The notes beneath the pieces are model-generated. The model had not been told where the DNA came from, searched no databases, and saw only the letters and a list, made by a program, of their open reading frames with translations. This document shows, one piece after another, positions 13,646 to 63,229 of a stretch of 64,000 bases of DNA (positions are counted from its first letter, which is position 1; the number at the start of each line of letters is the position of its first letter). Where the stretch lies: contig CAVZUZ010000012.1 in assembly GCA_963778565.1 (NCBI GenBank), positions 1,400,827 through 1,464,826 of the forward strand, given 5' to 3'. The DNA is from Thermoanaerobaculaceae bacterium (lineage in GTDB: Bacteria; Acidobacteriota; Thermoanaerobaculia; Multivoradales; UBA5704). Both the position numbers and the translations under genes were made by a program.

Positions 13646-15857
13646 TCAACCCTCCGCCGGACCCGTCAACCGCTCGGCCAGCCGGGTGAACCGCGCGCGG
13701 ACTCGGCGGTTGCCGACGGCGATCCGCAGGGCTCGCTCCTCTCCCACCAGAATCGCCAGCCGCTTCGCCCGGGTGAGCGCCGTGTAGAGGAGGTTCCGCT
13801 GCAGCATCACGTAGTGGGTGGTGTGGAGCGGGATGACCACGCAGGGGTATTCGCTTCCCTGCGACTTGTGGATCGTGCAGGCGTAGGCCAGCATCAGCTC
13901 ATCCATCGCGCTGAAGTCGTACACCACCTCCCGGCCGTCCACCGCCACCTTGAGGATCTGATCGACCTCGTCGACGGCGCGGACCCGGCCGATGTCGCCG
14001 TTGAAGACCTCGAGGTCGTAGTTGTTGCGCACCTGCATCACCTTGTCGCCCACCCGCAGGCTGTGCCCGCCGCGGACGGCCATCGGGCCTTCGGGGTTCA
14101 GCAGGTCGCGCAGGACGGCGTTGAGGCTGTTCGTGCCGAGGGGACCCCGGTTCGTCGGGGTCAGCACCTGGATCTGCTCGACGGGATCGAAGCCGAACCT
14201 GGCCGGGATGCGCTTGCCGACGAGCTGGCCGATGGTCTCGACGATCTCCTCGGGTTCCTTGCGCTCCAGGAAGAAGAAGTCGCCGTCGCTGTCCACCGAC
14301 TCCAGGACCGGCATCTGTCCCTGGTTGACCCGATGGGCGTTGACCACGATCAGGCTGCGCTCGGCCTGGCGGAAGATCTCGGTCAGCCGCACGACCTCGA
14401 CCGCTTTCGGAACGGATGAGGTCGGCCAGCACGCGGCCGGGGCCGACCGACGGGAGCTGATCCACGTCCCCCACCAGGATCAGGCGGCCGTGGTCCGGCA
14501 CGGCCCGGAGGACGTGGTAGGCGAGCACGGTGTCGAGCATCGACGTCTCGTCGACGATCAGCAGGTCGCAGCCCAGCGGATGCTCGCGGTTGCGGTCGAA
14601 CTGCCGCGTCTTGGGGTTGAACTCGAGCAACCGGTGCAGGGTGGTCGCTTCAGCGCCGGTGGCCTCGGCCAAGCGCTTGGCCGCGCGGCCGGTGGGGGCG
14701 GCGAGCGACACCTTCTGGGCCTTCCTCTCCAGGATCTCGACGATGCCGCGCACCAGCGTCGTCTTGCCGGTCCCCGGACCGCCGGTGATGACCAGCATCT
14801 TGCGGGTGAGCCCAGAGCGGATGGCCTGCCGCTGCTCCCTGGCGAGCGCCAGCCGCTCCCGCTTCTCGAACCAGTCCAGGGCCCGTTCGACGTCGATCTC
14901 GAGCGGCAGGAGCGGCTGGACGAGCAAGGCGCGGATGCGCGCGGCCACCCCGGACTCGGCGGCGTGGAGCGCCTTGAGGAAGACCGCCTGCTCGGCGGGA
15001 TCGACCGGGGCTTCGAGAACGACCTGCTCGGCCTCGGCAAGCGCCGCGAGCGCCTGATCGATCCGTTCGGCCGGCGCCTCGAGGAGCTTCTCCGCCTCCT
15101 CCAGGAGCGCCTTGCGCGGCAGGTAGAGATGACCGCGGTCCGCGGCCTGCCCCAGCAGGTAGAGCGTACCGGCCTCGATGCGCTGCGGCGCGTCGGGCGG
15201 TACGCCGAGGGCCGCGGCGATCCGGTCCGCCGTCTTGAAGCCGATGCCGTAGACGTCGGCCGCCAGGCGGTACGGGTTCTCCCGCACCAGCTTCGTGGCC
15301 TGAGGGCCGTAGGTCTTGTAGATCTTGATCGCGTAGTGGGTGGAGACGCCGTGCGACTGCAGGAAGATCATCACCTCCTTGATCTCCCTTTGCTCCGTCC
15401 AGGCGCGAAGGATGTCGCGGCTGCGCTTGGGACCGATCCCCTCCACCTCCTTCAGGCGGTGCGGGCGGTTCTCGATGACGTCCAGCGTCTCCAGGCCGAA
15501 GGCCTTCACCAGCCGCGCCGCCATCACCTTGCCGATGCCGCGGATGAGGCCGGAGCCGAGATATTTCTCGATCCCCTTGAGCGTCCCGGGCACCATGGTG
15601 GAGTAGGAAGCGACGCGGAACTGCCGGCCGTACTTCGGGTCGTTGATCCAGGAACCGGTCAGCCGCAGGTGCTCCCCCGGCTGCACCCCCAGAAGGTTGC
15701 CGACGGCGGTCACCGGCTCGTGCCGTCCCGAGACGTTGAGCCGCACCACGCTCCAGGCGTTCTCCTCGTTGGTGAAGACGATCCGCTCGAGCACCCCTTC
15801 CAGGGTGGTCGAGGCATCGCCGGATGGACCGGATCGGGGAGTGAGAGGGAGGGTCAT
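13646..15857 (-). CDS. recD2: ATP-dependent RecD-like DNA helicase (RecD2), apparent frameshift near 14395
   Basis: N-terminal part (ORF 13899..15857) has OB/HhH region and Walker A VITGGPGTGKTT, DEAD-like LLIVDETSMLD, GDVDQLPSVGPG; C-terminal part (ORF 13646..14392) has RLTEIFRQ...AYACTIHKSQGSEYP; the two frames join around ctttcgg at 14395-14400 with a 1-nt offset. Confidence 0.8.
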
Positions 15858-15909
15858 ATCCGCCGGAGCGGCAATAGTTTATGACAGGAGGTGACCCCCA
15901 TCCCCGTCT

Positions 15910-17320
<1,411 letters not shown>

Positions 17321-18912: not shown

Positions 18913-18934
18913 GATCCCTCCTTGGTCTTTCAGG

Positions 18935-19547
18935 CTAGGCCGACCCGATGCCAACCATGAAGTCGTACCCATCCGGGCCGCAGACTCTCTCGAGCGCAGC
19001 GAGCACGCGTTTGGATTTGGCCGCCGTGTCACGAGGCCCCGAGATGTAGAGAGGCTTGCCGTCCTTGCCGTACGGGAAAACGCGGTCGCCAAGGCGAGGG
19101 TCGACGCCGGCGAAGATCCGGCTCGCCACGGGATAATCATGATGCGGTGACAGGCCGAACTGCTGAGCGTACGCGACAGCGCCCTCGACCAGAGCTCGCG
19201 CGTTCGCCGCTGAGAGAGCTGCGAATGAACCATCTGCCGCGAAGCGGGTTCTCTGACGGTACTCGGCGGTTGCGAAGACGCCGAAGACCACATCCTTGAC
19301 GCCGAGGCAGAAGACGTCCAACAGAAACGTCGCCATGGCGATTCGACCGGCCCCAAGCTCTCGGGCGACCACGACGTTGCCGAGCCCGAGGCTCGAAGAG
19401 GCTTCGTGGGATCAGGCACTCGTAGATGGGAGAATCCGCCGGCACCGTGGGGAAACGCACCTGCGGCAGGTTCGGGCCCGCCGCTTGGCGCTTCGCTTTC
19501 CGGCGCGCAGCGGCCTTCTGCTCGCGACGCTTGCTGGGTTTTCCCAT
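18935..19547 (-). CDS. hypothetical protein, apparent frameshift near 19395 (basic N-terminus plus conserved-looking C-terminal domain)
   Basis: ORF 19137..19547 gives MGKPSKRREQKAAARRKAKRQAAGPNLPQVRFPTVPADSPIYECLIP then degenerates; ORF 18935..19372 frame continues ...EASSSLGLGNVVVARELGAGRIAMATFLLDV... upstream of its annotated start, so the two probably form one roughly 200-aa protein. Confidence 0.4.
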
Positions 19548-19672
19548 TGCTGTAGCCTTGCCTCTGCCGGGAGCTGACTGGAGAGACTCTACATGGAGGA
19601 GCTCTCGACGGCGGCGCGGGGGTTATGACGTAGAATAATCTCTCCATTCGGGCACCACCGGAGCCGCGTGAC

Positions 19673-20680: not shown

Positions 20681-20681
20681 A

Positions 20682-21692: not shown

Positions 21693-23906
21693 GGGCCCTG
21701 CCCATCCGGGTCCTGGCCATGATCTACCCGATCGAGCGGCACGTGGGGCATTGGGCCTGCCCGTCACCTTCGATCGACCTGGTCAGAGTGCTGATGGAGG
21801 GGGAGGACCTCGAGGGCCGGGTGCTGGAGGCCGTCAGACGGCACGATCCGCAGGTGGTCGCCATCATCGGCAAGCGACCCGGAGAGTATCTCGATCTCCT
21901 GGACCGGCTCGCGCCGCGCGTGCCCTCGCTGGCCCGCGTACCGCGGGTCTATCGCTGCCAGAACACGGTGCTCGCGGCGCGCCTGGGAAGCGGCGGGCCG
22001 GCACCGGCCCGGGAGGAGCTGGCCGCCCTCAGCCACTGGTTCGCGTTCGCCTGCGATCCCCGGTTTTCGCTCGTTCTGGTGCAGACCCTGGACGACGTCG
22101 AGCTGATCGCGCGGGCCCTGGCGCCGACCCGGGTCGCGCCATGCCCCTACGGCTACGACCCGGCGGTTTTCGATCCGGAGCTTCCCCGAGCTGCAACGGT
22201 CCGTCGACGTCGGGTGCTACTTCAAGCTGCGCGACGATCCGCGGCGCCGGCGCCTGGTCGAGACCGCCGAGAGGATCTGCCGGCGGCGCGGCTGGACGTT
22301 CCTTTTCGTCGAGGGCCGCTACGGGCACGACTACGCCCGCCAGATCCGCGAGACGAAGGTTTGTCTCCACCTCTCGGGCCTGCGGGAAGTCCCGTTCCGG
22401 ATGTACGAGACGACCGCGCTCGGGGCGCTCTTCCTGACGGATCCGCTCCGTTGCCGGGTCGAGACGCTGTTCGAGCGGGGCCTGGAATACCTCACCTACC
22501 GGCCCGACCTCTCGGACCTCGAGGAAGTCCTGGAATCGGTGCTTCTGGATTCTCGACGGCGGCAGGAGATTGCCCGGCGGGGGAAGGCGAGGGCGGCCGC
22601 GTACGCCTGGCCGGGCATCGCGGAGCGCTGGGTGGTGCCGGCCCTCGATTCGATCCTGGCCGCCACTCCCGCCATCGATCCCACCGAGCACTTCCGGGGC
22701 GAGGTCGGGCCGATCGAGCACCCGGAGCTGCAGGAATGCGGGATCGATATCCGCAACATCGGCTGGACCCTCGGCAACGAGTGCCCCTACCGCTGCACGC
22801 ACTGCTATTCCATGTCCGCTCGGCGCAAGGGCAGGGATCTGTCGGTGCCGCTCGTCGATCGGATCGTCGACCAGTTGGCCCGCAACGGCGTCGAGACGGT
22901 CAACCTGGGGGGCAATGAGCCGCTCTTCACCAACGGGCCGGATCCCCGGCACAGCCTGCTTCACTACATCATCGAGAGGCTGGCCGGCGCGGGGATCAAG
23001 GTCGGCCTCACCACGGCCGGCATCACGCTCGTCCAACTGGTCCGGCACCATCCCGAGGCCGCCCGCCGGCTCAACGACGTCGACGTCAGCCTCGATTCCC
23101 CCTTCGCGGAGGAGCACGACCGCAACCGCGGCGCTCGCCTCTATCCGCAGGCGATCGAGGCGCTGGAGATCTGCGGCAGGTTGGGCGTGGACCGCTCGAT
23201 CATCATGTGCGGCATGAGTTGGAACTTCACCCCTCGCCACCTCCGGGCCCTGGTGAGCGTGGCCCGCCGTCACCAGGCCCACGTCCGGATCAATCCGCTC
23301 AAGCCCGTCGAGCCCGGCCACGCCGCCTCCGCCCTCGAGCCCGGCCAGTACTACGCCGGGTTCTCGCTGCTCATGGACCTGTGCGACCCCGTCGACCTCG
23401 GCGAGCCGCCCCTGGCGACGATGATGCGGTTTCAAGGGGCGCGCGGCTGCCCCTGCGGCCGGACGTCCTTGCGGATCCATTCCATCACGCCCGAAGGCCG
23501 GGTCCCGGTCTCGCCCTGCGTCTACCTGCACGACTACAAGGTCGGCGACCTTGCGACGGACGAGCTGTACGACATCGTCCGGTCACCGCAGTTCCGCTCC
23601 TTCCGGCAACGCAACGCGAACCCGCACGTCATCCCCGGTTGCGAGGGCTGCCCCGTGCTCGACTTCTGCCGGGGAGGATGCGCTGCCCGGTCCTACCTCC
23701 ATCACGCGCACGCGACCGGCGAGCGCTCCCTTTTCCAGCGCGATCCCTACTGCCCGGTGGAGATCGCTCCCGGAGACCCCTTCCCGGTCGAGCCCCGCCT
23801 GCCCCGGGATATGGTCCTCGTCCATCGGGACTATCTCTGCACCTGGATCGGCACGCCCAAGGCCATGGCGCCGGAGGCATCCCGGGAGGCATCTCCATGC
23901 ATGTGA
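21689..23906 (+). CDS. CgeB-like glycosyltransferase fused to radical SAM/SPASM domain (rSAM-3), apparent frameshift near 22190
   Basis: N-terminal frame (from ATG 21689) MRALPIRVLAMIYP...; after a 1-nt offset near 22185-22195 the frame of ORF 22401..23906 is open upstream and reads ...VDVGCYFKLRDDPRRRRLVETAERICRRRGWTFLFVEGRYGHDYARQIRETKVCLHLSGLREVPFRMYETTALGALFLTD (CgeB-family GT motif R.YE..A.GA.L.TD) continuing without stop into CPYRCTHC radical SAM core and Cys-rich SPASM tail. Confidence 0.6.
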
Positions 23907-25998: not shown

Positions 25999-26981
25999 GC
26001 GGCCTCGATGACGGCCAGGGCCCGAATGGCGTCCGCGGGACCGGCCCGCAGCGGCGCCCCTGCCCTGAGATGGTCGGCGAAGTTCTCGAGCAGGCGGATC
26101 TTCATGTCCGCGACGCTGAGCCGCGGCAGCTCGTATTCCCGCAGGAAGCGGATGCGGTCGAAGCACTTCAGCGGGCTGCCCAGCTCGAGAAAACCGTCGG
26201 TGCCCATCACCACGTCCTTCGGCCCCGCGATGGGAAACCGGCCCACGCCGTAGGCGCAACAGGCCGCCTCGATCACGCCCAGCGCGCCGCTGCGGTAGCG
26301 GAGATCGACCAGGGCAATGTCCTCCACCTCGACCTCGTGGTGCAGCGTCGCCGTGCGGGCGAAGACGTCCGCCACTTCCAGGCCGGTGACCCAGGCCATC
26401 AGGTCGACCTGGTGGATGCCGTTCATCAGCAGCACGCCGCCGCCGCTCGTCTCCTTCCTGCTCCGCCAGGACGATGGATATTCCTCGCAGCGCATGCCGT
26501 GCTCCCAGTAGGCCCTGGATTTGTAGCCGAGCGCGGAGACACGGGTGAAGACGGTGCTGCCCAGCGTCCCCTCGGAGAGGATCTCCCGGGCCCGCTCGGC
26601 AGAGGGAAGAAAGCGGCGCTCGAGCCAGGGCGCAATGCTGACTCCGCACTCCCGGCCGACCTCCACCAGCTCCCGGGCCTGGCCGACGTTCAGGGTGAAC
26701 GGCTTCTCGAGGAGAACGTGTTTGCCGGCGCGCGCGGCCCGGGTCGCCATCTCCAGGTGAAGGTGGTGCGGCACGGCCAGCGAGACGGCCTCGATCGCCG
26801 GGTCCTCGAGCAGGCGTTCGGGCTCCGAGGTCCAAGGTAGGCCGAAACGCTCTCCCAGCATCTTGGCGGCCCTCGGCTCGGCGTCGGCAACCATGCGGAA
26901 GCTCGACCCGCGGGGATTCCCGCATCGCCTGGGCGTGGAGCTTGCCTGCCGCTCCGCAGCCGACGAGTCCCGTCCGAATGG
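25950..26981 (-). CDS. Gfo/Idh/MocA-family oxidoreductase (WbpB-like sugar dehydrogenase), apparent frameshift near 26895; continuous in-frame with upstream DegT gene
   Basis: N-terminal Rossmann TGLVGCGAAGKLHAQAMRESPRVEL in the 1283-aa ORF frame (TTG 26981 with GGGAGGAGAG RBS), then frame break; ORF 25950..26894 continues MVADAEPRAAKMLGERFGLPW...HLHLEMATRAARAGKHVLLEKP (Gfo/Idh/MocA EKP motif). Confidence 0.65.
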   Translation of the reverse strand, partial: PFGRDSSAAERQASSTPRRCGNPRGSSFRMVADAEPRAAKMLGERFGLPWTSEPERLLEDPAIEAVSLAVPHHLHLEMATRAARAGKHVLLEKPFTLNVGQARELVEVGRECGVSIAPWLERRFLPSAERAREILSEGTLGSTVFTRVSALGYKSRAYWEHGMRCEEYPSSWRSRKETSGGGVLLMNGIHQVDLMAWVTGLEVADVFARTATLHHEVEVEDIALVDLRYRSGALGVIEAACCAYGVGRFPIAGPKDVVMGTDGFLELGSPLKCFDRIRFLREYELPRLSVADMKIRLLENFADHLRAGAPLRAGPADAIRALAVIEAAYDSAARRQPVEPAAI

Positions 26982-28149
26982 GCTCGCTCAAGCGCGGCTC
27001 TCCTCCCGGAGCCGATCGAGCGTCTCGAGGATCACGCCGGCATACCGGTCCACGAGCTTCCGGCTCGTAGGCCGTGAAGGCGTCGAGGAAGAACACCCGC
27101 CGCATGACGTCCTCGGCCGTGAGCCACGGCCCGCCCGGCCGCAGGTGGCCGGCCAGCGAAGGCAGATCGGCGAGGTAGCCGGCGACCCTTCGCGCGCGGA
27201 CGCCGCGGGCCTGCAAGGCGTCCACGAGCCGGTCGCGGAGGGCGCCGCTCGCGCCAGCGGCCAGCAGCAGCTCGTTGCGGAAGTAGACGCGGCCGGCGGG
27301 CGGGCGATCCAGGTTGGCGAAGCATCCTCGCTCGCGAAGGCGAGCCCGCAGGTGCTCGCACGCCCGCTTGCGCACGGCGGCCTGCTCCGGCAGGTCCTTC
27401 AGGGACTCATGCGCCAGGGCCACGAGGATCGGGGAAGGGATGAGCTTGAAGCCACGGCCGACGCCGGCGAGCGCCCTCCTTTCAGGCGGCGCCGCCAGCA
27501 GCCGGCGCGGATGGCCGAGCTCCATGGCCCGATAGTACAGGTCGTCGCGGTCGGTCAGCAGGGCCCCTCCCTCGCCGCCGGAGACGAGCTTCGCCGCCTG
27601 GAAGCTGCAAAAGGACACGTCGCCATAGCTCCCGACCGGCCGCCCGCCGAAAGCGGCGCCGTGGGCGTGCGAGACGTCCTCGACCAGCGCCAGGCCGTGC
27701 TCGTCGCACAGGGCCCGCAGCTCGTCCAGGCGCAACGCTTCGCCGAACATGTGCGTCACGACGACGGCCCGCACCGTGCCGTCCAGCAGGCGGCGCACCG
27801 CTTCCGGGTCGATGTGGCAGGTGTCGGGCAAGACATCGGCCAGGGCGACGCGCGCTCCGCACTGCACGGCCGGCAGCACGGAGGCCCAGTGCCCGATCGC
27901 CGACGCGATCACCGTGTCGCCCGGGCCGACGCCCAACGCCTTCAGGGCCGAGAAACAGGCCGACGTGCCGTTGACGCAACTCAGCGCACGGCGGACGCCG
28001 AAGAGCGCGGCCACGTCCCGCTCGAACGCCTCGAGCGTCTCCGGATGCCAGGACGTGGCTCCGGCCTGCAGGAGCCCGGCCACCCGTTCGAGAGCCCGGC
28101 TGCCGATCCGGGGCCATTGGAAGAACGCGGCTTCGTCCTCAAGGCTCAT
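26982..28149 (-). CDS. DegT/DnrJ/EryC1/StrS-family PLP-dependent sugar aminotransferase (WbpE-like); no stop before the Gfo/Idh/MocA domain (possible fusion)
   Basis: ATG 28149 after GGGAGG RBS; MSLEDEAAFFQWP...GDTVIASAIGHWAS...DVSHAHGAAF...SFQAAKLVSGGEGGAL (PLP-lysine region); 389 aa to the start of the oxidoreductase domain with no intervening stop codon. Confidence 0.7.
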
Positions 28150-31209: not shown

Positions 31210-32309
31210 TCAGCACGGTGACCTCCCAAGGTTCGCGAAGAATTCTGCCACCGTCGAGAAGGGCTCCTCGCACAGCTCGTGCTCCTGCCTGTGCTCCTGG
31301 ATGCCGCGATACCCCGTACAGGCCCGGCACACATCGCTGAAGCGCGCCTCGCAGTGGCTGAGCAGCAGGTCGATATAGCGGTCGTTGTCGAGGGAATAGA
31401 TCTGCTCGAACCGTTCTCGCGAGAGGTCGCCGATGACCATCGTGGCGTTGCCGTCGTCGGCGTAGCACGCATTCAACCGGCCATCGGGCAGCACCGTGTG
31501 CTTGTGAAACAGAAAGGCGCAGGGAATGCTTCCTTTGCTCGTCTGTGGCTTTAAATGGATGTCGAGCGAACGCAGGTCGCCGGACGTGATGAGACCGCCC
31601 CAATTCGAAAACCGGTCATGTGGGATTCGCACTCGAACCCGGCGTTGCTCGAGGTCCTCGAGCAGCTCGCGCAGACGGGGATGGCAGTCTTCCGGGCGAA
31701 AGGACGCGGCGGTCCGCAAACGCACTTCGACCCGCGCGGCCACGTCGGGCCAGTCGCTCAGCGATTCGAGATTTCGCAAGACGGTGTGGAAAAGCTCCGG
31801 CCGAGCCCGAGTGATCGCCGCGAACGTGTCCTCGTCGTGTCCGTAGACGCTGACCGACAGCCAACCCAGCTTCGTGAGCCGCCTGAGACGATCGCGGGCA
31901 GGCCGCGACAGCACGGTCAGGTTGGTACAGAATGAAAAGCCGGCTACGCCTCGGTGCCGCTCCAGGAGCGCTCGAGCTTGTCCAGAAACCGCGGGTCGAT
32001 GAACGCCTCGCCCAGGATGGGTGTCAGGCCGAACCGCGTGAATCCGTACTCGCAGGCCTTGTCCACAACCTCTGCGAAGAGCGCGTCGGGCATGATCTGA
32101 CGCGGGATGGACGTCTTCGGATACGCACAGAAGCGGCATTTCAAATTGCAGATCGTCGAAGGCGTGATGTACAGGCGTTCGGTCAGGCTCGGCACGCGCA
32201 GTTGGCTTACGTGGGCGATTCGGCGCAGGATGCGCGCGAGCTTGTCGTCGCGCGAGGCGGGTACGTCGGCGAGCCGAGCCTGAGAACCGTCAACCATCAG
32301 TCGTCTCAC
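31210..32309 (-). CDS. radical SAM domain protein (rSAM-5), apparent frameshift near 31975
   Basis: ORF 31944..32309 gives ITPSTICNLKCRFCAY (CxxxCxxC) ...AEVVDKACEYGFTRFGLTPILGEAFIDPRFLDKLERS then stops; ORF 31210..32139 frame continues ...LLERHRGVAGFSFCTNLTVLSRPARDRL... ; the two overlap in an LERS/LERH window consistent with a 1-nt indel. Confidence 0.65.
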
Positions 32310-32398: not shown

Positions 32399-34370
32399 CT
32401 AGAAGCTCATCTCCAGCTTCACGCTCCGCAGCGTGCCCTTGTCCAGCTTCTCCTTGTCCTGCACTTTCAGGGTCCAGGTGCCCTTCGGGGCCTTGCCGAC
32501 GAGCGTCAGGAGGCCGGGAGCATTGATGGCGTCGTAGGTCTTCTTGATGTTGTCCGTGCCGCCCCCCTGCCGGTTGTGGAGGATGACCGGCGCCACTCCC
32601 GTGGCGGCGGGCGGAAGCAAGCTGACCACGAGATCGCCGATGTAGGTGTGCTCGATGTCCACCGTCACCTTGATCGCTTTCAGCGGCGAGGTCTCGGGTA
32701 CCTGCACGGCGAGCTGAGCCGTCCCGAGATCGGGGATCGGCACGTCCTGGACCGTCGAGTGGACCACGACGGCTTGGGGTTGAGCGGGCAGGGCGAGATC
32801 CACGGCCTTTTTCGCATCCAGCCGTCCATAGCCGTACCAGGCGCTGTGGCCGCCGGCGTCGTACTTACCGTTCGCCGGGTCGATCTGCTCGCAGCACCGC
32901 TTGAGGATGTCTTTCACCTCGTCGTGCCGCAGCTCGGGATTCCGGGAGAGGACGAGCGCGGCCACTCCCGCCGCTCCGGGACAGGCGCTCGAGGTGCCGC
33001 CGAAGTTGTTGGTGTAGTTGCCCTTGACGTCGCCGAGAGACTCCCGGCCCGAGTTGTAACCCGGCGCGCCGCTGCGGTCGGTCGTGAAGATGCCCGGCGT
33101 CTGCGCTTGGATCGAGTCGTTGCTGGGAAAGGCGCACCAGTTCGCCTTGCCGAAGTCGCTGTAGGCGCTCTTCCTGCCCGCATCGTTGCAGGCCGCGACG
33201 GCGACCACCCCGGGGTGGCTGGCATAGCCGTCGTTGTCGACGCTCTCGTTGCCGTTGCCGGCCGCCCAGGTGATGACGCAGCCGCGCCCGTTGCGCCCAT
33301 GGGTGAGGGCGTGCTCGATCGCCAGACGGGTGGAGTCGGGCAGCGGGACCTTCCTGGTGTGCACGGGATCCTGCGGGTCGAACCACTTGCCGTCCTGCGG
33401 CCCCCAACTACAGGAGATGACGTCGGCGCCGTGATCGGCGGCCCACTCGAAGGCGTCCGCCTCTTCCAGCGAGCCCAGATCCGAAACCAGGCGAATCGGC
33501 ATGAGCTTCGCCGCCGGGGCTACCCCGGAGGCGCCGAACTTCCCGTCGGCCGCGGCGACTCCGGCGCAGGAGGTGCCGTGATTGTCACCTTGCCCCGGGC
33601 GCGGATCGTCCGTGCCGAACGACGCGTCGCGCTTGGCCACGATCTTGCCGGGCGAGCTGAATTCTTCATGGTCGATGTCGACGCCGTCGTCGATCACCGC
33701 GATCGTGGTCCCCTCGCCCCGCGTGACGGCCCACGCCGCCTCGACCTTGGCGTGCGCGTCGATGGACTTCCCCCCCACCGTCATCTTCTTGAGGTGCCAC
33801 TGTCCAGGAAAGGCGGCGCGGCGGCGAACCTCGCGCACCAGCTCGGCGTGGCAGAGGCTCGACGGTGGCCTCGTCCAGCAGCCGCTGGGCGATCTTGAAC
33901 ACCTCCTGGCCGGTGTCTTCCGGGGCGGAGACGAAGTAGGCGTTGCGGGCATACGGCAGGGGGCGCCTCACCTCCAGCCCGTAGCCCTTGAGGAGCCGCG
34001 TGCACGCCGACGGGCTCTGGTCGTCGTAAAACTTCACGAAGAAGTTCTCCGTGTAGACGACCGGCTCTTCCGAGGCCCTGTCCAGCAGCACCCGGCCGGC
34101 GAACTTGATCGCCGGCTCCTTCTTCAGGACGGCGCGGGCCTCGTCGCGCAAGGCACGGACCCCTTTGCGCGCCGTCGTGCACAGCACCTCCACTCCGGCT
34201 CGCTTGAACCTCGCCACCGTCTCGAACTGATCGACGACATTGCGGGCCGCGAGGGAGAGCGGCTCCAGTCGCAGATCGGCGGAGTCGGCCGTGCGCACCA
34301 CCAGGTGCTCGTCGCTCTCCACCAGAGTCAGCTTCGTGCCACCTTTGCCGCCGTAGGTCACCGTGAACAT
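32399..34370 (-). CDS. subtilisin-like S8 serine peptidase with N-terminal pro-domain and C-terminal proprotein-convertase P-domain, apparent frameshift near 33855
   Basis: catalytic motifs AVIDDGVD (Asp), NHGTSCAGVAAA (His), GGTSSACPGAAGVAAL (Ser); C-terminal HTYIGDLVVSL...GTWTLKV P-domain; N-terminal region is in ORF 33666..34409 frame (MFTVTYGG... with AGGAGAGG RBS) and joins the main frame at ...LLDEATVEP/LCHAELV. Confidence 0.75.
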
Positions 34371-39539: not shown

Positions 39540-41910
39540 ATGGATCTTGGCTCCCTCATCGCCGCGGTAACCCTCCGGCGCGCCCCGGGCGCCGGAGGTC
39601 TGCGCGTCGCGGCGGCCATGCTCTCGTGGCTGTCGTTGACGGCCGGGCTGCTCGGCGGTTGCCGCGCGCGTTGCACGGTGACGTCGGCCGGCATCGGGCC
39701 GGAGCCCGGGCTCGATGGCGGCGTTCCCTACCTGGAGAGCCTGCGCCGCGCCGCCGAGGCCGAGGATCCGGCCGCCCGGGAGGCGTGGGATCGGGACCGG
39801 CGGGAGTACGCGACGTTCCGCCCGGCGCGTCTCGCGGAGCTGCGGACCCATCCTTACCTGCTGCAGTTTCCGCGGCTCACCGACGACCAGCGGCTCGGCC
39901 TGGACGCCTGGTTCCACTGGACCGGCGGCAACCAGCTCACCTGGCGCGACCTCGCCCAGCGCAGCGCCGGCAAGCTGGACCTGCTGCGGCTGCTCGACAA
40001 CAACCTGCTGGACCGCAACGAGCGCTTCGCGAGGTTCGGCCTGATCAACGATCCCGCCGCCCGGCCGCCGGAGCGCGATTCCGCGGGCCGCTGCCGCGTC
40101 GACGCGTACGGTCTGTGCCTCGACCGCGTCGCCGGCGATGCGCCGGCGACCGAGCGCTGGATGGGGCGCCCCTCGGGCATTCTCGGCGTGCGGCTGTTCG
40201 ACAACCCCGACTACCGGCCGGGAACCTGGAACGCGGCCACTCCCTTCCGGCCGGCGCCCGGTTGCCGGCCCGGCGCCCGGCAGGGCCGCGATCCGGCGGC
40301 CACGGCGCGCCAGAGTAACGCCGACTGCTACCAGCCGCCGTATCTGGTGGGCCTGAGCTGCGGCTTCTGCCACATCTCCTTCAACCCGGAGAACCCGCCG
40401 GCCGATCCGGCGCGGCCGGGCTGGGAGAACGTCGCGGGCCTGCTCGGCAACGTCTATTTCCAGGAGGGCCCGCTCTTCGCCTGGCTGCTGAACTTCGGCC
40501 AGGACGCCTTCTACACCGACTACCTGCTGGTCCAGCCGCCCGGCACCAGCGACACCTCGCGCATCGCCACCGACGATCTGGACAACCCCGGCGCCATCAA
40601 CGCGCTGTTCCAGGTGGGCGCCCGGCTCGCTGCGGCCGGGGACGCCGGGGACGAGGAGATGCCGAACGGCCGGCGCCAGCCGGTGCCCCACATCCTGAAG
40701 GACGGCGCCGACTCGGTGGGCCTGCCGCTGGCCGCCCTTCGCGTCTACGTCAACATCGGCATGCTCGGCAACTACTGGCTCAACCAGCACGACGCCTATC
40801 TGCTGCTGGGCGGGGCGCCGCGGCCGCAGGAGCCGTTCCGGGTCGAGCAGGCGATGCGGACGCCCGGCTACGACGGCACCTATTGGTGGAACCAGACCGA
40901 GCTGCGGGTGCCCGACCTGGCGGCGTTCTTCGCCAGCCAGGCGCCGGTGAAGCTGGCGCGGGCGCCCGGGGGTACGGCCTACATGACGGTGGACGCCGCC
41001 GCGCTGGAGCGCGGCAAGGTCGTCTTTGCCGATCACTGCGCCGGCTGTCACTCGAGCAAGCAGCCGTCCGCCGACCGCGAGCAGGATGCCGCGGCCTGGC
41101 GGGAGGAGATGCGCGCCATCGTGCTGCGGCCGGATTTCCTGGAGGGTAACCTTCTCGCCGACGACCGGCGCTATCCCGCGCCGCTGGTGGGGGTGAACCT
41201 CACCCGCAGCATGGCCACCAATGCCCTGGACGGCCACGTCTGGCAGGACTTCTCGTCGCTCACCTACCGCAACCAGCCGTCGCTGGGCGAGGTCGCGCTG
41301 CCGGACCCCTTCCGTTCCGGCGAGAGCCGCGAGCCTCTGCGCCCCGGCCGGCGGGCGCGGCTATTACCGCACCGCCTCGCTGGTCAGCCTGTGGGCCACC
41401 GCCCCCTTCTTCCACAACAACTCGCTCGGTCGTCCCATCCACGATCCCGGCGTCGCCGCGCGGCTGCGCGCCTTCACCGACGCCTCCGAGCAGCTCCTCT
41501 GGCCGGAGCGCCGGACCGATCCGCAAGGCCGGGTCGGCCCCTACGTCAAGCGGACCGGCGACCACGTCACCTGGCTGCCGCTGCCCGACGGCCTGCTCGT
41601 GCCGCTACCGCCGCGCTATCCGGTCAAAATGCTGGGCAACCTGCCGCTGCACGGGCTGGCGCAACGGCTGCCGGCCGGTCTCGCCAAGACCCTGCTCGGC
41701 GACGGCGGCGGCAAGCCGTCCCAGCGCAAGGAACGCATCCTTCGCCGGGTCCTCGGCAACGAGACCCTCCGCCTCCAGCTCAGGAAGCTCCTGCTGGACC
41801 TCAACGCGGCTCCCGATTTCGTCGAGAACAAGGGCCACGAGGCGTTCGTGGCGCGGATCGGCAGCGACGGGGACAAGCAGGCCCTGATCGAATTCATGAA
41901 GACCTTCTGA
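39540..41910 (+). CDS. di-heme c-type cytochrome, CCP/MauG-like or DUF1111-like (paralog A), apparent frameshift near 41330
   Basis: lipoprotein-like signal (LTAGLLGGC); CGFCH and CAGCH heme motifs; frame 0 runs to ...EVALPDPFRSGESREP then the frame of ORF 41221..41910 continues APAGGRGYYRTASLVSLWATAPFFHNNSLG...ALIEFMKTF, matching paralogs (GGGRGYIRPPSLVSVWATAPFLHNNELG). Confidence 0.7.
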
Positions 41911-48247: not shown

Positions 48248-49739
48248 ATGGCTACCAACCAGAAGACCCGGCGCGTCTGGATCCTGATCGTCGTCGTCGT
48301 CATCCTCGCCTTCTTGGGCTGGCTCGCGTGGTACTCGCTGTTCCGCGAGCCGCCGCAGAAACTGGCCAACGACTCCATCGAGGAGGCCTTCAAGTACGGC
48401 TCCATCTACGGCGAGAACGAAAACGGCGTGCCGTTCTGGATCTGGCTGATCCTGCCCAAGATGTTTCCCGAGTACCTGCCGGCGCCGGGCGGCTACGCCG
48501 AGCTGGGCTTCGCCTGGGAGCCGGGGCGCGAGATGCCGATCGGCTTCACCCGCAGGACCGTCGGCATCGAGCGGGTGGCCATCAACTGCGCCCTCTGCCA
48601 CGTCACCCGGCTGCGCAAGCAGGGCGAGGTGGTGCCCAGGCTGTACCTGGGCGGGCCGGGCCACACCAGTAACGTCCAGGGGTATCAACGGTTCCTGTCC
48701 GCCTGCGCCAGCGACCCCCGCTTCACCTCCGGCAACATCCTCAAGGCCATCGCCGCGGTCTACGAGATGCCGTGGTTCGAGCGGCAGCTCTACCGCTTCG
48801 TATACATACCGTTTACCCGCAAGGCGCTGCTCAAGCAGAAAGCGGACTACGAGTGGACCTTGAGCCGCCCGATCTGGGGGCGCGGCCGGGTCGATCCCTT
48901 CGGCCCGGCCAAGCTGGCAGTTTCTCGGCATCCCCCCGGGCAACGACATCGGCAACTCCGACATGCCGCCGGTCTGGGAAATGAGGCGTCGCGTCGAGAC
49001 CAACAGCGCCTTCCATTGGGACGGGCTCAACACCGACTTCACCGAGGTGGTCCGCGGCTCGGCGCTGGGCGACGGCACCGGCCGCGGGGTGATGTCCGAC
49101 GCTCTGCCGATGCTGGACCGGCTGGAGAAGTGGTTCCTGGACCTGAAGGCGCCGAAGTTCGAGAGCCTCTTCCCCGTGGACCGCGCCCTGGCCGCCGCCG
49201 GCGAGCCGATCTTCCGCCAGCAATGCGCCGACTGCCACGCCTTCGGCGGGCAGAAGACCGGCAAGCCGCTGCTGCTCGACGACGCGCTCTGGGGCGCCCA
49301 GCAGTTCCCCACCGCCCCGCGGCCGCTGTACACCGATCACCACCGCGTCGAGGAATGGGAGACGGCCGACGCCCAGGCGTTCAATGAATACAGCGACGGC
49401 TATCCCTGGCAGTGGACGCACTGGCGCGCCACCGGCGGCTACAACGCCGTGCCGCTGGTCGCCATCTGGATCCGGGGCCCCTACCTGCACAACGGCTCGG
49501 TTCCCTATCTGCCCGAGATGTTCGAGGTGCCCGAGAAGCGCACCAAGGTCTTCTACCGCGGCTTCGACGTGTACGATCCGGTGCGGGTGGGTTTCATTTC
49601 CGAAGGCGCGGAAGCGATGAAGTGGGGCACCCGGTACGACACGGCGGCGCCGGGCAACAGCAACCAGGGGCACCTGTGGGGCACGGACCTCGCGCCGGAG
49701 CAGAAGCGGGCGCTTCTCGAGTTCTTGAAAACCCTCTGA
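48248..49739 (+). CDS. di-heme c-type cytochrome (paralog D), apparent 1-bp deletion near 48925
   Basis: ATG 48248 after AGGAGG; N-terminal TM anchor; CALCHV heme motif; frame breaks after GRGRVDPFGPAKLA; ORF 48963..49739 frame continues GNDIGNSDMPP...CADCHAFGG...GPYLHNGSVPYL...ALLEFLKTL; about 85% identical to paralog E. Confidence 0.75.
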
Positions 49740-51861: not shown

Positions 51862-54228
<2,367 letters not shown>

Positions 54229-57065: not shown

Positions 57066-58698
57066 GTGACGCGTTTCTTGAAGACGGCGGTTGAGCTGAT
57101 TCGACAGCAAGCACGACGAGCGCGAGGCGGAACCGACTACGAGGCTGTCGAGGTGGCCGCGCATCTTTATGCGATCGGCATGAAGATCCTGGTCCACCAC
57201 AAAAACCCACAGATGGCGAAGGTTTCAGAGCTTGCCCCCCTTCTGCGACCCGCCAAGACGCTCGACGACCTCCTGAGCCAGCTCGAGTCTCTTCCCGGCA
57301 GCCTCGATATCGACACCCTTTTTCAGGTGATTCACGGTGCGCTGTCGCGGATCGAAAAGGAGTTCTGCGACACGGCGCGGGATTCCAAGGCTCTCCGGGG
57401 AAAGAAGAGAATCGGCAAGCTGGGCTGCACGGTTCATTTCGGCTTGCGTCTCCAGCCGGCACTGGGAGTGGCAAGAAAGAGGCGTTATGAACTGAAGCCG
57501 GGCAAGCGGCCTCCCGCTCCCACCTTCTATCTCAACGACCCGAGCTGGCGGCTCACTTTCTATCAGGAAGACGGGCTCCTGCCGGCGGTCCATTGGGTCA
57601 ACCCTGGACGTCATCCCAAGCCATTGTTTCGTGAAAGCGGCCGCGATGCCTCGGAGCGAAAGCACTTCCGCATCGCCCTCTGTCCGTTGCGGGGGCCCTT
57701 TCACCCACAGTTCCAGATCCATCCCGAGAAGGGTGATTCCTTTCGGGCGGTCCCGCAGGCGGGCATCTACGGCGCGGATCGCCTGCACAGACGCCTCGCC
57801 GAGATCTGCTCCGCGGCGGCCCGTCAGGAAGTACATCTGCTCGTGTTTCCCGAGCTCACCGTGGATCCGCACTCTCGTCGGTTCCTGAGCCGGCTGCTTC
57901 GGGAGTCCGGCTCGCGTTTTCCCTACGCCGTGATCGCCGGCAGCTTCCATGTCTGGCCGCAGGAAGCCTCGACGGATTGGCCCGGCGTCCGTCCGTGCAA
58001 CGAGTCCGTCATCCTCGACCAGCGTGGTGCCGAGCTTCTCGCGCCACCGCAAGCGGGGGCCGTTCCTGATCCCCGCTGAGCTCGTGACCTCCGCACCCGA
58101 CTGGTTCCCGGGCGAGACCCGCGGGCCCGAAGCGCTGGCCGCCGAAATCGATGAGGGCATCGAGCCCGGCTCGGAGCTGCAAGTGCTGGATACCTCCCTT
58201 GGACGGGTAGCCGTCCTCATCTGCGCCGACGCGATCAAGGCCGACCCCCATGGCTACCGCCCGCTGATCGAGCGCCTGCGCCCCGACCTCCTGTTCGTGG
58301 TCGCCATGACTCCCGAGACGGAGAGGTTCGGGCGTTTCGCCGAGGAAATGAGAGACCATTGGGTCGGCACCCTCTTCGTCAACGCGTATTGCCTCTGCGA
58401 GCTCCTCCCGGGAGCTGCCGCGAAGAAGGCTCCTGACCTCGCCGCCGTGGACCTTGCTCTGTTCGAGCCCATGGGGGCCGCCCCAACCCGTCTGTGCTGG
58501 CGTTTTGGCGAAGGAGAGGCTCTCTGTTGCTATTTCAACCCTCCCAAGGCGGGCGCCGGTGCCGGTCCGCCCAGGGATTGGCGAGCTTGGCAGCCGGCCA
58601 CGGAGGCGCTGACCCCGACCGGTCTTGCCTGGCTCGGAGGCTCTCGGAAGAGGCTGGGCGTGATCCTCGATCTCGGAATCCACTGGGAGACTCCCTGA
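57066..58698 (+). CDS. carbon-nitrogen hydrolase (nitrilase-superfamily) protein with roughly 200-aa N-terminal extension, apparent frameshift near 58040
   Basis: GTG 57066 after GAGAGGAGA; CN-hydrolase catalytic Glu (HLLVFPELT), frame break after ILDQRGAELL, next frame gives RHRKRGPFLIPAEL (catalytic Lys region) and AVLICADAI (catalytic Cys). Confidence 0.6.
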
Positions 58699-58807: not shown

Positions 58808-60667
58808 ATGGCTAAGAAAGCATTGCCCCGGCGCCCATCCAATGAACTGGAGGAGCTGGTTCAGCAACTTCTGCAGGCGCTCGCCCGCTTAAAGAAAGCA
58901 CGAAGCGGAACCGACGAGGCCGACCTTTACCTCGCCTACCTCGATCACGCTCAGGCGCTCGCCTGGCGCGGCGTGGCTCAGCGGCGGCCCGCCGTGCCGC
59001 GCGAAGTGCTGGACCGCTTGCTGGCGGCCCAACCCTTCATCGACTCCTACCTTCCGGAGGACGACTCCGACCCGCGCGTCGAAGCGGCACGGAACCTCTC
59101 CTTCGTCTTTCGTTCGTTCTATCTCGCCGATGAGGCGCTCGAAGAGTCAAGAGTCGAAAGCGTGCTGGCGGACCGCGAACGCTCGTTGACGGAGCGCGAG
59201 GTGCTGCGCGTGCTCTCTGCGAACCCGGAGCGTTATCTGCGGCGAGGCGAGGTGCAAAAACTCTTGAAGCTGCTTAAACGTCCAACCCCGGCCCGGGTCG
59301 GCCAGATCCTCGTGCAGCTCGACGCGGAGGACTTGGTCGTCCACATGCCGGGACGAGCGCAGGGAAACCCCAGGACCACCTTCTATGCCCTGTCGCCCCA
59401 AGGCCATGAGATCTGCCGCCGGCTGGACCTGATCTCGCAGCGAAAGCCTTACTTCTCCACCAAAGAAGAGGACTGGAAGGTCTATGTCACGGCCGAGCGG
59501 ATCACTGCACCGCGCCGGCGGCCTCCTGAACCCGGGCGGATCATCGCATTTTGGTCTCATCGCGGAGGTGTGGGCAGAACGACCACGGTGGCTGGAGCCG
59601 CCCTCGTGTGGGCCGATCGCACGCGGCGGGCCCCGGAAGAGAAGCTACTCGTCGCCGACTTTGACTTCGAAGCCCCGGGGCTCGACGTTCATTTCGCGTC
59701 TCGGGGCCTTGGGGCGTGCCGCGGTCTCCGCGGGCTGGTGGTCGACTACTACCGTCTTTCACAGAACGACCGGGCACCTTGGCTCCGACAGGCGCTGCAA
59801 CAAGTTGGGGAATACATTTTGCAGCCTTTGCCGGAAAGGTGTCCGAATCTGTTCTACCTCCCTACCGGGTTCGGACCCGATGGTGCGAGTGACTCCGACG
59901 AAGAGAGAGCCGAAGCCTGGCGCCGCCTGGAAGCCGAAGCGCAAGCGGAAGCTACCGGCCAGAGAGGGGAGAGCGAATCGGTTGGAACCGCATTTCTTCC
60001 GGAGCTGCGAAGCGCTTTGGAGGAAGCCTATGCCCGAGTGCTCCTCGACCCGCGAACGGGCATGGGGCTGTCAGCTTGGGCGGCCATCCTCAAACTCGCC
60101 GACGCCTTGGTTCTCTGTATCCGTCCCACGGAGCCGGATCCTCGCCTGCTGCGCGCCGTCATGGGGAATTTTCTTAGACGGCGCGCCGAGGATGTCGGGG
60201 AGAGCGCTTCGAATGTAGGTGTGCTCTTCGTGCCGGTCCGTCCCGGCCATGAGGCAGAGCTGAGGTCTTGGGTCGAGCGCCATCTGTTAGAGGTCAAGCC
60301 TTCCCGATACGGCCTGACACGAAGAGATCAGCGTTATCTGATTGCGGTCGTCGGTCACGAGGACCAACTCGCCGGACGTATCGAGCAGAGCCCTTACGGT
60401 CCGCTGGTAGGTGAGGTTCTCGGTGCCGAAGCGTCTCCAGTAGTTCTCGACAAGGCTGTCACCTGTGTGTACGACCAAAACACCAATTTCGACTGGAAAC
60501 GAATTGCCGCTGGACTTCTCGGCAATGTCCGCAACCGTGAAACGACAAGTCTCCTCCGTGCGCGAGTCTTGCCGGGCTACGCTCCAGATGAAAAGACAAA
60601 GAAGCTGGTTACATCGATCCAAGAGACCTGGACGTTCGATGCCGGCGCAGGAGGGTTAGGCGTGTGA
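58808..60667 (+). CDS. ParA/MinD-like P-loop ATPase with N-terminal winged-helix-like domain and degenerate Walker A (HRGGVGRTT)
   Basis: 619 aa; RIIAFWSHRGGVGRTTTVAGAAL resembles deviant Walker A xKGGxGK[ST] with Lys replaced by Arg; N-terminal 250 aa helical. Confidence 0.5.
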   Translation: MAKKALPRRPSNELEELVQQLLQALARLKKARSGTDEADLYLAYLDHAQALAWRGVAQRRPAVPREVLDRLLAAQPFIDSYLPEDDSDPRVEAARNLSFVFRSFYLADEALEESRVESVLADRERSLTEREVLRVLSANPERYLRRGEVQKLLKLLKRPTPARVGQILVQLDAEDLVVHMPGRAQGNPRTTFYALSPQGHEICRRLDLISQRKPYFSTKEEDWKVYVTAERITAPRRRPPEPGRIIAFWSHRGGVGRTTTVAGAALVWADRTRRAPEEKLLVADFDFEAPGLDVHFASRGLGACRGLRGLVVDYYRLSQNDRAPWLRQALQQVGEYILQPLPERCPNLFYLPTGFGPDGASDSDEERAEAWRRLEAEAQAEATGQRGESESVGTAFLPELRSALEEAYARVLLDPRTGMGLSAWAAILKLADALVLCIRPTEPDPRLLRAVMGNFLRRRAEDVGESASNVGVLFVPVRPGHEAELRSWVERHLLEVKPSRYGLTRRDQRYLIAVVGHEDQLAGRIEQSPYGPLVGEVLGAEASPVVLDKAVTCVYDQNTNFDWKRIAAGLLGNVRNRETTSLLRARVLPGYAPDEKTKKLVTSIQETWTFDAGAGGLGV

Positions 60668-63229
60668 AAAAATCTCAAGAGCTCAGGAAACGAAATACAG
60701 TAGCATTGCAGATCGCGCGCGAGACTGCCCTCCTCACGTTGTCGGCCGCAGATCATTCGCTTACTGAGAATCTCAGCCGGTTGGCGCAGAAAATTGCTAA
60801 TTTGACGGGTTTAATGGGAGCCTTGATCATCGCATACGATGATGAGGGCTCACCTCTGACCTATGGATCTTACCACCTTGAAGTCGAAGGCGCTAAGGCG
60901 AAGATTCAGGGGATTTCAACACTGGTCAAGGCTCTGCCTTCATACCAGGATAAGAACAATTCTTGGCATTCAATCCGGTCACCCTTGTTTCCGATGGATG
61001 CCGGAGAGTTGCAACTTTTGCCCATCCAGAGCTCCGCCGCGAGCCATTCTTGCGGACTACTTCTCGCATCCTCCGCTTGGCCCCAGCCGAGCTCGCTTGC
61101 TGCCTTAATGGAGAGCGCCAATGTTCTGGCAGGGGCTCTGCAAACGTTGATTGTCGCCGAAGCTTGGGCCCGGGCCAAGCGTTTACAGGAGTTAGCTCAC
61201 AATTCACTGAACCAACCGGAAGGCGGGTTGCCGGATCTGCACAAGGTGGTGCAAAGCCTCAAAGACCTTTTTCAAGCCGACGCCGTGACTCTTCTGCTGG
61301 AGGACGGTGGCGAGTTGCTGCTGGCTTCGAGTACCAACCCCGAGCTCGGCAGGGACGTCAATCAGCCGGTTGTTTACCGCTCTGGAGAAGGGCTCACGGG
61401 AACGGTCTTCAAGGAGAGGAGAGCGCTTCGACTCACCAACGCCAATGACCCCAACGAGGTGTATTGCCTCTGTGGCTTGAGGAGGGAGAAACCGCTTCAC
61501 CCGGAGCATGATGACGAAGGATTGGTGACTTGCCAATTCCTGGGCGTTCCGATGCGCTCCGGCGATAAATGCATAGGTGTTCTCCGTATGTCGCGTCGGG
61601 GTGGCATAGCCAGATTCACCAAGAATGATGAAACGGCCCTGCAGTTTTTTGCGGACCTTCTGGGGAACTCTCTGATCCGCTCCTGGCAGCTACTGCTAGC
61701 CAGCGGGATCTTCGATTCAACTTCAGAAGCGATTGCTGTCTCGCGCCGTCAGCGAAACGATCAAGGGGAAACCTGGCCGAAAATTGTCAAGATCAATCGT
61801 GGCTTCGAGAGGCTGCTGGGAATGCGCGGTGACGAGCTGCTCGGGCGGGATGCCAGAAGATCTCTACGCCGCGGGAGCCTATGAGGAGATCTACCACAAT
61901 CTGGAAAAGATGCGTGACGAGGCCCTCAAGAGCCGACCAAGTGAGTACGGCCCGGTGGTGGTGCACCTTAACGTAAAGGGTTCCCCTCGGCCCGTCGAGA
62001 TTTCATTTCATGCATTCTCCAATAAGCTCGTAATTCCACCGAGTCTTTATATGATTGGAATCGCCCGAGATACGGAAGCGCGTCATCAAGGCTTGCTTGC
62101 GCTCCTTGACAAGATGGGCATCGCTTATTTTCGTGCTGATATCGCCGGCAAGACCATCGAGTCGACGCCCGCAGAGGAGCGAATCACGGGTTACAGCGCC
62201 GCTGAGTTTGATGAGTTCAGCAGAGATCGCCTGTACGAGGATTCCCGGGATCGGGAAGAGCTGCTGAGAAAGCTGCGCAACAATGGCGGCTTATTGATCA
62301 GCGAACCGCTGCGAGGGCGCCGCAAGGACGGTTCCCTTTTTTGGGTCGAAGGTGACTTTCAGCTGATAAGGGATGCTGAAGGAAGGGAAATTCTTGAGGG
62401 ATTTTACAAAGACATCACTCATCGCATACAGCTTCAGAGTTTCGTTGATGTCAACACCGGCAGCGTATTGCAGGAGGAGGAGCTGTTCACGCGGCTGAAG
62501 GCCAATGCCGAGTTTCACCTGGATTACGTGAACAGCCTGAGCCACCAGCTTCAGACACCTCTCTCCTCACTGGTCGAGAACCTGCGAAACATCAAGGAAG
62601 GAGTGTTGAGCCAACGAGATATCGCGGATCGTCTGTCCTATGTCGTCGGCCAGGCTGGAGTCTGCGCGCGCCTGGTCCGTAACCTTTCGTACATGGACAA
62701 GATCTTGCGCGGAGAGAGCTTCCAGCGCGGCGAGGTGGGTTTGGCCCGCCTCGCCATCCAGACCAAGCTCGATTTCCTCCACTTGATCCAAGAGAGGAAG
62801 CTTGATGTCGAAATTGAAGGCGGCAGCCTCGACCGGTACCTGCGGGTCCTAGGCCACCAGGAAATGCTCCGGCAGGTTCTGGTCAATCTATTGGACAATG
62901 CCATCAAATACTCGGTGCCGGGATCGAAGATCTTGATTCGCGGTCTGCAGTGGCGGCAAGGACCTGTCTTGGAGATCAGTAATCAGGGACTCTCTATTCC
63001 TCGGGAATTTCGCGAACGAATCTTCGAGCGCGGATTCCGTACTGCCCAGGCGAAAGCCAATGTACCCCACGGTACAGGACTGGGTCTCTGGCTGGTGCGC
63101 CGCATCCTCGAGGCACATGGGGCCTCTATTCATTGCGACGAGCTTCTCGAGCACGGAGCGAAGCGTACGGTCTTCCGTATCTTTTTTCATCACCAGAACC
63201 AGTCGTCGGCTCTTAGGAGATCGGCATGA
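60664..63229 (+). CDS. GAF-PAS sensor histidine kinase, apparent frameshift near 61848
   Basis: GTG 60664 overlaps previous stop; GAF domain (GLTGTVFKERRALRL...FLGVPMRSGDKCIGVLRMSRR); PAS start ...GDELLGRD / MPEDLYAAGAYEEIY joined by 1-nt offset; HisKA (LSHQLQTPLSSL) and HATPase_c (LVNLLDNAIKYS, GTGLGLWLVRRILEAHG). Confidence 0.7.

Follow-up and report, generated by a model that had tools for sequence, protein, structure and literature searches.

Twelve frame-breaking insertions in a Thermoanaerobaculaceae contig are probably consensus errors, two thirds of them within the palindrome GAGCTC

Decaying genomes, such as those of Mycobacterium leprae and Sodalis, carry stops, deletions and insertion sequence (IS) elements, have a deletion bias and show relaxed selection in their dead genes. 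The problem of frameshifts caused by insertions and deletions (indels) is reportedly measured by the IDEEL test. Frameshift-causing indels are documented for long-read consensus sequences (PMC9262707), and motif-bound errors mediated by base modification are documented in nanopore data (PMC10687267). Here, we analyzed a 64,000-nucleotide (nt) stretch of the Thermoanaerobaculaceae contig CAVZUZ010000012.1, referred to below as the window, in which an earlier note had pointed to at least eleven frame disruptions in otherwise conserved genes. We found twelve. Judging from the sequence, we put at roughly 0.85 the probability that these twelve frame breaks arose as errors in the consensus of the deposited assembly and are not mutations of the organism. 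In that case, the artefact itself is ordinary, while its motif signature, the palindrome GAGCTC, is unusual and diagnostic.

Compared with the indels described in long-read consensus sequences and metagenome-assembled genomes (MAGs; PMC9262707), the breaks are alike in being single-base indels that occur about once per few kilobases (kb) without decay, in genes that are intact in relatives. They also lie in a very long contig of an uncultured organism, with truncated public gene calls, as is the case for that class of errors. However, the classic indels fall in homopolymers and are often deletions, whereas we observed insertions only, two thirds of them in one non-repetitive palindrome. The modification-mediated errors of nanopore sequencing (PMC10687267; PMC11610603) resemble the present ones in recurring at a short motif of the methyltransferase type and in resisting consensus correction. 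In contrast, most published examples are substitutions, in motifs that include GCAGC and GCTGG, and the lesions described here are insertions of 1-2 nt. With decay of the Mycobacterium leprae or Sodalis type, the window shares the presence of many conserved genes with frameshifts, but the mixed lesions, deletion bias and relaxed selection of such decay were not seen here.

All eleven frame disruptions claimed in the earlier note were present, as judged by frame plot, codon segmentation, Pfam domains, homologues and paralogues. Where the claimed sites lie in coding sequence of the typical high-GC kind, a plot of GC at third codon positions (GC3) and a Viterbi segmentation based on codon usage revealed frame switches on the same strand. 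The Viterbi model gave no assignment for the lower-GC sequence around sites 3 and 11 (numbered as in Table 1). On three-frame translation, known motifs continued in the other frame, for example DVDQLPSVGPG.../VVRLTEIFRQ in RecD2 and GT/LFLDEI in the sigma-54 activator (the stroke marks the junction). After the frames were joined, a single Pfam domain ran across the junction in five genes: recD2, the sigma-54 regulator, the Gfo/Idh/MocA gene, the radical SAM gene 5 (rSAM-5) and the CN-hydrolase gene. Homologues, orthologue DNA or an intact paralogue covered 10 of the 12 junctions, and those of the CN-hydrolase and the histidine kinase were covered by a spanning Pfam domain only. Deletion of 13 bases in total gave twelve complete open reading frames (ORFs) with no internal stop.

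The count of at least eleven was therefore borne out, and a twelfth break, near the C-terminus of a DegT aminotransferase (site 5b), had been missed. The density, first put at about one indel per 6 kb, became one per ~4 kb on recounting. The positions were approximately right, the actual sites lying up to 12 nt away, and the description of every break as a 1-nt offset held for 10 of the 11 claimed sites, where one base is skipped; at site 6, an insertion of 2 nt fits better. Comparison with relatives, which had been proposed as a check, found the genes intact there. The DNA compared was L001, L002 (syntenic, from JGI), L006 (a Cytophagia MAG), L007, L008, L009 (Logan SRR25722001) and L010; intact orthologues are carried by L002, L007, L008, L009 and L010. 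In the syntenic comparison with L002 and L010, two matches in different frames were obtained for recD2, the regulator, cytochrome A and cytochrome D only.

Eight of the 12 insertions lie within a heptamer or octamer that turns into the palindrome GAGCTC once the extra base or bases are removed. The added bases always duplicate bases of the inner four of the hexamer, namely A2, G3, C4 or T5, or G3 and C4 together. Errors of a random or homopolymer kind had been expected, and the placement of two thirds of them in one palindromic hexamer speaks against this expectation. In a first motif test, we took the highest count reached by any hexamer in the 10 nt on either side of the sites; a count of 9 was also reached by about 6% of random sets, and the test was not significant, since it is dominated by abundant GC-rich hexamers. 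When the count of each hexamer was normalised by its background frequency, GAGCTC could be re-created at 9 of the 12 sites, whereas the figure for random positions was 8.2% (binomial 3e-8); of 1500 random site sets, not one matched this result. In addition, the heptamers and octamers derived from GAGCTC cover 0.5% of the window, and the probability that at least 8 of 12 random positions fall inside them is <1e-12. The hexamer is intact in the orthologue DNA at sites 3 (L009) and 7 (L007), and the motif-based repairs are the best homologue fit at sites 4, 5, 5b, 6 and 8. An attempt to repair each GAGCTC-like heptamer and to measure the resulting ORF growth was dropped as too noisy in DNA of 67% GC.

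The lesion spectrum was uniform. All 12 lesions are net insertions (+1 nt in eleven cases, +2 nt in one); with equal chances of insertion and deletion, such an outcome would have a probability of 0.5^12 = 2e-4. No nonsense mutations, deletions, IS or other mobile elements were seen in the 64 kb. The mixed spectrum expected of pseudogenisation was not found, and the detected errors are not mainly substitutions either: all are insertions, substitutions being undetectable here. As to the homopolymer context suggested in the earlier note, the window contains 133 runs of at least 5 nt, of which at most one, the C6 run at 48932 (site 9), is possibly involved; the errors are thus not concentrated in homopolymers, and the hexamer GAGCTC, where eight of them lie, has no such run.

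We also compared the sequences on either side of the junctions. Amino acid (aa) identity upstream and downstream of the junction was 87.5/84.5, 98.3/91.0, 78.9/87.6, 93.4/94.2 and 65.4/62.9% in five genes. Codon differences after the junction, counted as synonymous to non-synonymous in five orthologue comparisons covering four genes, were 40:23, 51:39, 45:20, 91:60 and 18:11. Relaxed selection in the downstream frames was not detected, and a divergence dominated by synonymous changes persists. The preference of the earlier note for sequencing or assembly error over gene decay is favoured by the insertion-only lesions, the downstream conservation, the intact relatives and a truncated public gene call.

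Table 1. Positions, host genes and sequence context of the twelve frame-breaking insertions. Forms of GAGCTC are given as on the plus strand, with the coding-strand form in brackets where it differs.
Site	Position	Strand	Gene	Gene coordinates	Insertion
1	14399..14407	-	recD2	13646-15857	one extra base; coding strand GAAAGCGGTCGAG; not in GAGCTC
2	16645..16654	+	sigma-54 response regulator	15928-17320	one extra C; window GGCACGCCTG; not in GAGCTC
3	19388..19394	-	conserved 203-aa hypothetical	18935-19547	GAGGCTC (coding GAGCCTC) = GAGCTC + C
4	22178..22184	+	glycosyltransferase-radical SAM/SPASM fusion	21689-23906	GAGCTTC = GAGCTC + T
5	26898..26904	-	Gfo/Idh/MocA oxidoreductase	25950-26991	GAAGCTC (coding GAGCTTC) = GAGCTC + T
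5b	27054..27060	-	DegT/DnrJ/EryC1 aminotransferase, near 3' end	26988-28149	GAGCTTC (coding GAAGCTC) = GAGCTC + A
6	31966..31973	-	radical SAM/SPASM gene 5 (rSAM-5)	31210-32297	GAGCGCTC = GAGCTC + GC (best fit)
7	33854..33860	-	S8 protease with P-domain	32399-34370	GAGGCTC (coding GAGCCTC) = GAGCTC + C
8	41331..41337	+	RoxA-like cytochrome A	39540-41910	GAGCCTC = GAGCTC + C
9	48921..48937	+	cytochrome D	48248-49739	one extra base, in TTT 48921-48923 or C6 run 48932-48937
10	58032..58038	+	CN-hydrolase-domain protein	57066-58698	GAGCTTC = GAGCTC + T (probable placement)
11	61843..61850	+	GAF-PAS histidine kinase	60664-63229	one extra base (CGGGATG)

At the sites listed in Table 1 as forms of GAGCTC, orthologue DNA gave the most direct comparison. 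The extra C of site 3 is missing from L009 (91% nt identity), which reads CTTCGAGC-TCGGG there; at the junction, the window has CGAGCCTCGGG and L009 has CGAGC-TCGGG. The repaired protein, LFELGLGN (GAG CTC), agrees with the family consensus LFExGIGN, and the best 150 listed of >2500 homologues each align as one stretch. Likewise at site 7, the window reads GTCGAGCCTCTGCC compared to GTCGAGC-TCTGCC in the L007 orthologue. Among the listed matches of the S8 protease, 119 of 120 are full-length, with relatives of 655-682 aa, and the three closest full-length homologues have ...VELCH..., which is the motif repair. The public call for this gene, P0139, is a 432-aa fragment, 100% identical. At site 8, the window has CGAGCCTCTGC against CGA-ATTCTGC in the L010 orthologue (92% nt identity), and the repaired ESRELCAPAGG corresponds to ESREFCAPAGG in L010. 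Cytochrome A gave two tblastn matches in different frames, and its paralogue within the window, the next gene, aligns through the junction.

For the other motif sites, the comparison was mainly at the protein level. The glycosyltransferase-radical SAM fusion (site 4) aligned without gaps across the junction with a homologue in the Cytophagia MAG L006, the repaired PELPELQRSVDVGCY matching PEFPENDRDIDIGCY; the motif repair yields PELPE where the homologue has PEFPE. In rSAM-5, two L006 paralogues (41% and 38% identity) were gapless only with 2 nt removed (FLDKLELLERH), and Pfam Radical_SAM extends across the junction. The best fit at site 6 would therefore be an insertion of 2 nt, GC, with a 1-nt deletion as the alternative. 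The Pfam CN_hydrolase match spans the junction of site 10, where the repair gives a clean 543-aa ORF. No close orthologue was found for this gene, and the extra base would lie inside the motif.

Sites 5 and 5b lie in adjacent genes, the TTG start of the Gfo/Idh/MocA gene overlapping the DegT stop. At site 5, the repaired VELRMVAD aligned with VDLRCVVD of the L008 orthologue (68% identity, gapless), and the Pfam GFO_IDH_MocA Rossmann domain spans the junction (1-114 of 120). Site 5b was visible in the Viterbi segmentation as a frame blip of 59 nt at 26999-27057. DegT leaves its frame at ~27058, and the new frame ends with ...PELVDRYAGVILETLDRLREESRA and a TGA stop that overlaps the TTG start of Gfo. 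The repaired C-terminus, AYEPELVDRYAGVILETLDRLREES, gave a gapless alignment to AYSEEVVTNYGRAIVETVRKLRQVS in L008 and raised the Pfam score from 198.1 to 201.6 bits; PDB alignments did not reach this C-terminus. In L008, DegT and Gfo are separate intact genes. Together with the gapless repaired C-terminus, this suggests that the DegT-Gfo read-through is an artefact of the extra base.

The four remaining sites, in recD2, the regulator, cytochrome D and the histidine kinase, have no motif in common. At the recD2 junction, the window has AGCGGTC compared to AGC-GTC in L002 and GA-CCGTC in L001, exactly one extra base. All 12 homologues retrieved carry ...LIRS(E/A/T)xVEVVRL... at this position, >120 full-length homologues include none that is split, and Pfam AAA_30 spans the junction. 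The extra C that the earlier note had placed in the sigma-54 regulator was confirmed by the L002 orthologue (92% nt identity), which has one base fewer: GGCA-GCCTG versus GGCACGCCTG in the window. A tblastn search with this regulator returned two abutting matches (1-241 and 242-463), and Sigma54_activat is continuous after repair (1-167 of 168). Cytochrome D, once repaired, showed 76% identity over 496 aa, end to end, to its intact tandem paralogue at 49942-51426, and a 494-aa protein of L010 matched it in two frames. The reading gttt(t)ctc proposed earlier for this site is incorrect, the actual sequence being GTTTCTC, with three T. The histidine kinase junction, at residue 406, is spanned by PAS and PAS_4 matches that are weak and below threshold, no stretch being significant alone, and the repair produced a clean 854-aa ORF. 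Following the PAS consensus, the extra base would be placed after ELLGR. Counting site 11 as a motif site, by repair to GAGCTCTC, is formally possible; the PAS consensus (ELLG) argues against this and we left it uncounted.

These observations would be explained if base calling or consensus polishing had added one or two spurious bases at twelve places, each added base copying one beside it. Eight of these additions would have fallen on the inner four bases (AGCT) of GAGCTC, turning it into GAAGCTC, GAGGCTC, GAGCCTC, GAGCTTC or GAGCGCTC. Since the palindrome is identical on both strands, a context-dependent error would presumably appear in reads of both orientations, and the consensus could therefore not vote it out. 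The most likely trigger would be a base modification at GAGCTC, for example that of a SacI-type methyltransferase, which would disturb the raw signal or the polymerase kinetics; we give methylation as the specific trigger about even odds. The other four insertions, in recD2, the sigma-54 regulator, cytochrome D and the histidine kinase, would be generic single-base over-calls.

Several observations weigh against consensus error, or against parts of this scheme. The error status is deduced from the assembled sequence. The profile is atypical for known artefacts, as the classic residual errors of nanopore and PacBio sequencing are homopolymer indels, often deletions, and the published modification-mediated nanopore errors are mainly mismatches, whereas we observed insertions (PMC10687267). 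Only ~15% of the GAGCTC sites are affected (8/53, 45 being intact), and no flanking motif separating affected from intact sites was found. In the first 13.6 kb, where we found no frameshift of any kind, none of 16 GAGCTC sites has an insertion, compared to 8 of 37 beyond; this difference was not significant (Fisher p = 0.09), and the chance that all 12 events miss this region was p = 0.057. Uneven coverage or polishing along the contig might lie behind the contrast. Among the window ORFs scanned, none had a Pfam match to a methyltransferase family, nor did the window show a GAGCTC methyltransferase. Finally, strictly essential genes are absent from the twelve. Viability is therefore compatible with real mutations, and the earlier argument against decay from the essential character of the genes is weaker than stated.

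This last point bears on genuine recent frameshifts, by which the organism or its dominant population would carry twelve freshly inactivated genes in an early phase of genome decay. The breaks are present in the deposited sequence, no indispensable gene is among the twelve, and very recent events would be compatible with the conservation observed downstream. We nevertheless consider this improbable, because the lesions comprise nothing but insertions of 1-2 nt (12 of 12) while decaying genomes have mixed lesions, and because nonsense codons, deletions and IS elements are absent from the 64 kb. Bacterial mutation is reportedly biased towards deletion. Moreover, one lesion per 4 kb would mean that about a quarter of the genes are inactivated, yet no relaxed selection was detected, and the hexamer specificity has no known basis in spontaneous mutation; such specificity is, by contrast, typical of sequencing errors that depend on context or base modification (PMC10687267). 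Another reading is that of scars of self-attack, in which a GAGCTC-specific endonuclease would have cut the genome after its methylase was lost or under-active, and mutagenic Ku/LigD end joining would have closed a subset of the sites, about 15%, with fill-ins or additions of 1-2 nt. Eight lesions are restricted to one palindromic hexamer, of a kind typical of type II restriction sites, and GAGCGCTC is the product expected from filling in a 2-nt GC 5' overhang; mycobacterial end joining is also said to add single nucleotides at blunt ends. If true, a wild bacterium would bear, across its whole genome, the traces of attack by its own restriction enzyme. It appears even less probable than recent decay: the three insertion positions (A2/T5, G3/C4 and the centre) are unlike one cleavage geometry, four lesions lie outside the motif, and ~15% of sites genome-wide would amount to hundreds of breaks and dead genes in one surviving lineage. 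Ku, LigD and restriction genes were not seen in the window.

The purifying selection on the downstream frames would also be expected of programmed recoding, by +1 ribosomal frameshifting or transcriptional slippage at the sites, and 7 of the 8 motif sites have an in-frame GAG codon and then C(C/T)T or CGC. Such recoding is hardly credible here. The orthologues and paralogues compared are single-frame at the same places, the motif stands in a different frame at site 5b and is lacking at four sites, and the 45 intact GAGCTC sites are read normally. No slippery sequence or stimulatory element in common was found among the sites. Consensus error remains, in our view, the reading that best combines the insertion-only spectrum, the intact relatives and the motif signature.

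If the breaks are consensus errors, the true genome should carry twelve intact genes, and the twelve are to be treated as such; no gene-decay story should rest on them. At ~1 frameshift per 4 kb, roughly a quarter of the genes of this genome are probably mis-called in public protein sets, and one truncated fragment is already public. The error is unlike the familiar homopolymer kind and would therefore be missed by homopolymer-aware polishing. With the GAGCTC signature, most such errors across the 1.5-Mb contig can be located and corrected cheaply and without a reference. If methylation proved responsible, the same signature would in addition uncover a system modifying GAGCTC in an uncultured lineage of Thermoanaerobaculia, and modification-linked errors would include insertions besides mismatches.

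Eight intact window proteins and the 432-aa S8 protease fragment are exact singleton matches to proteins of one NCBI/ENA contig of 1,511,397 nt. The source is probably a long-read metagenome assembly, because this 1.5-Mb contig comes from an uncultured lineage. The repaired RecD2 showed 80-91% identity to the >120 full-length homologues, the named ones being mostly from Thermoanaerobaculia, Acidobacteriota. The GC content along the window is 57-71%. No RNA genes were detected in the window by Rfam and transfer RNA scans; the long stretches called non-coding by the codon model are low-GC islands of protein-coding sequence and not ribosomal RNA (rRNA).

Other candidates for frame breaks were also considered. 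The ORF pair 11333-11863/11814-13469 was rejected as a further frameshift, being two genes in L002 too. The 23S-rRNA-IVP (four-helix-bundle) gene was also rejected: it is intact here as one 209-aa ORF at 18286-18912 and split in L002 (6942-7570) into 156 and 53 aa, with indels in a variable linker. In L009, the 91%-identical relative, we observed homopolymer differences at 1594-1652 and 2193-2252, TT versus TTT in the hypothetical gene and an extra A in the A-run of the IVP gene. One of these truncates the hypothetical protein of L009 to 85 aa, and they look like ordinary homopolymer error in another data set. The ORFs 3072-4478 and 4429-6729, which overlap by ~50 nt, could be two separate genes or one gene with a further frameshift; neither a family nor a homologue was found for the pair. 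They belong to a region of lower GC (0.59-0.60) at 1700-6800 with three large ORFs (1865-2905, 3072-4478 and 4429-6729), none of which gave a significant Pfam, NCBIfam or PADLOC match. At the corresponding position, L002 has a DUF4301 gene and two unannotated ORFs.

The region 18900-38900 is an accessory island, absent from the syntenic L002. It contains five radical-SAM genes (four with SPASM), two glycosyltransferase-like proteins, DegT and Gfo/Idh/MocA, as well as an epimerase, a polysaccharide deacetylase and an amine oxidase, followed by the S8/P-domain protease. A scan of genome contigs found no close relative of this rSAM island, only distant homologues; a partly similar set of glycosyltransferase and rSAM genes is present in the Cytophagia MAG L006. 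The stretch 34900-38900 consists of ~4 kb of weak coding signal with the pair 35094-35498 and 35465-35758, the second of which matches the Phd antitoxin family, and with two ORFs of 251 and 302 aa without family match.

Beyond the island, two tandem RoxA-like dihaem cytochrome genes, 76% identical, occupy 48248-51426, and the 86%-related L010 has one copy (13411-14895). At 51862-54228, one 788-aa ORF combines an N-terminal half similar to FAD-binding monooxygenases with an Old-Yellow-Enzyme (Oxidored_FMN) C-terminal half. Between 57066 and 63229, the CN-hydrolase-domain protein, with its N-terminal extension of 230 aa, precedes a 619-aa AAA ATPase protein with a KGGVGR motif, after which comes the GAF-PAS histidine kinase; these three genes could form one functional module.

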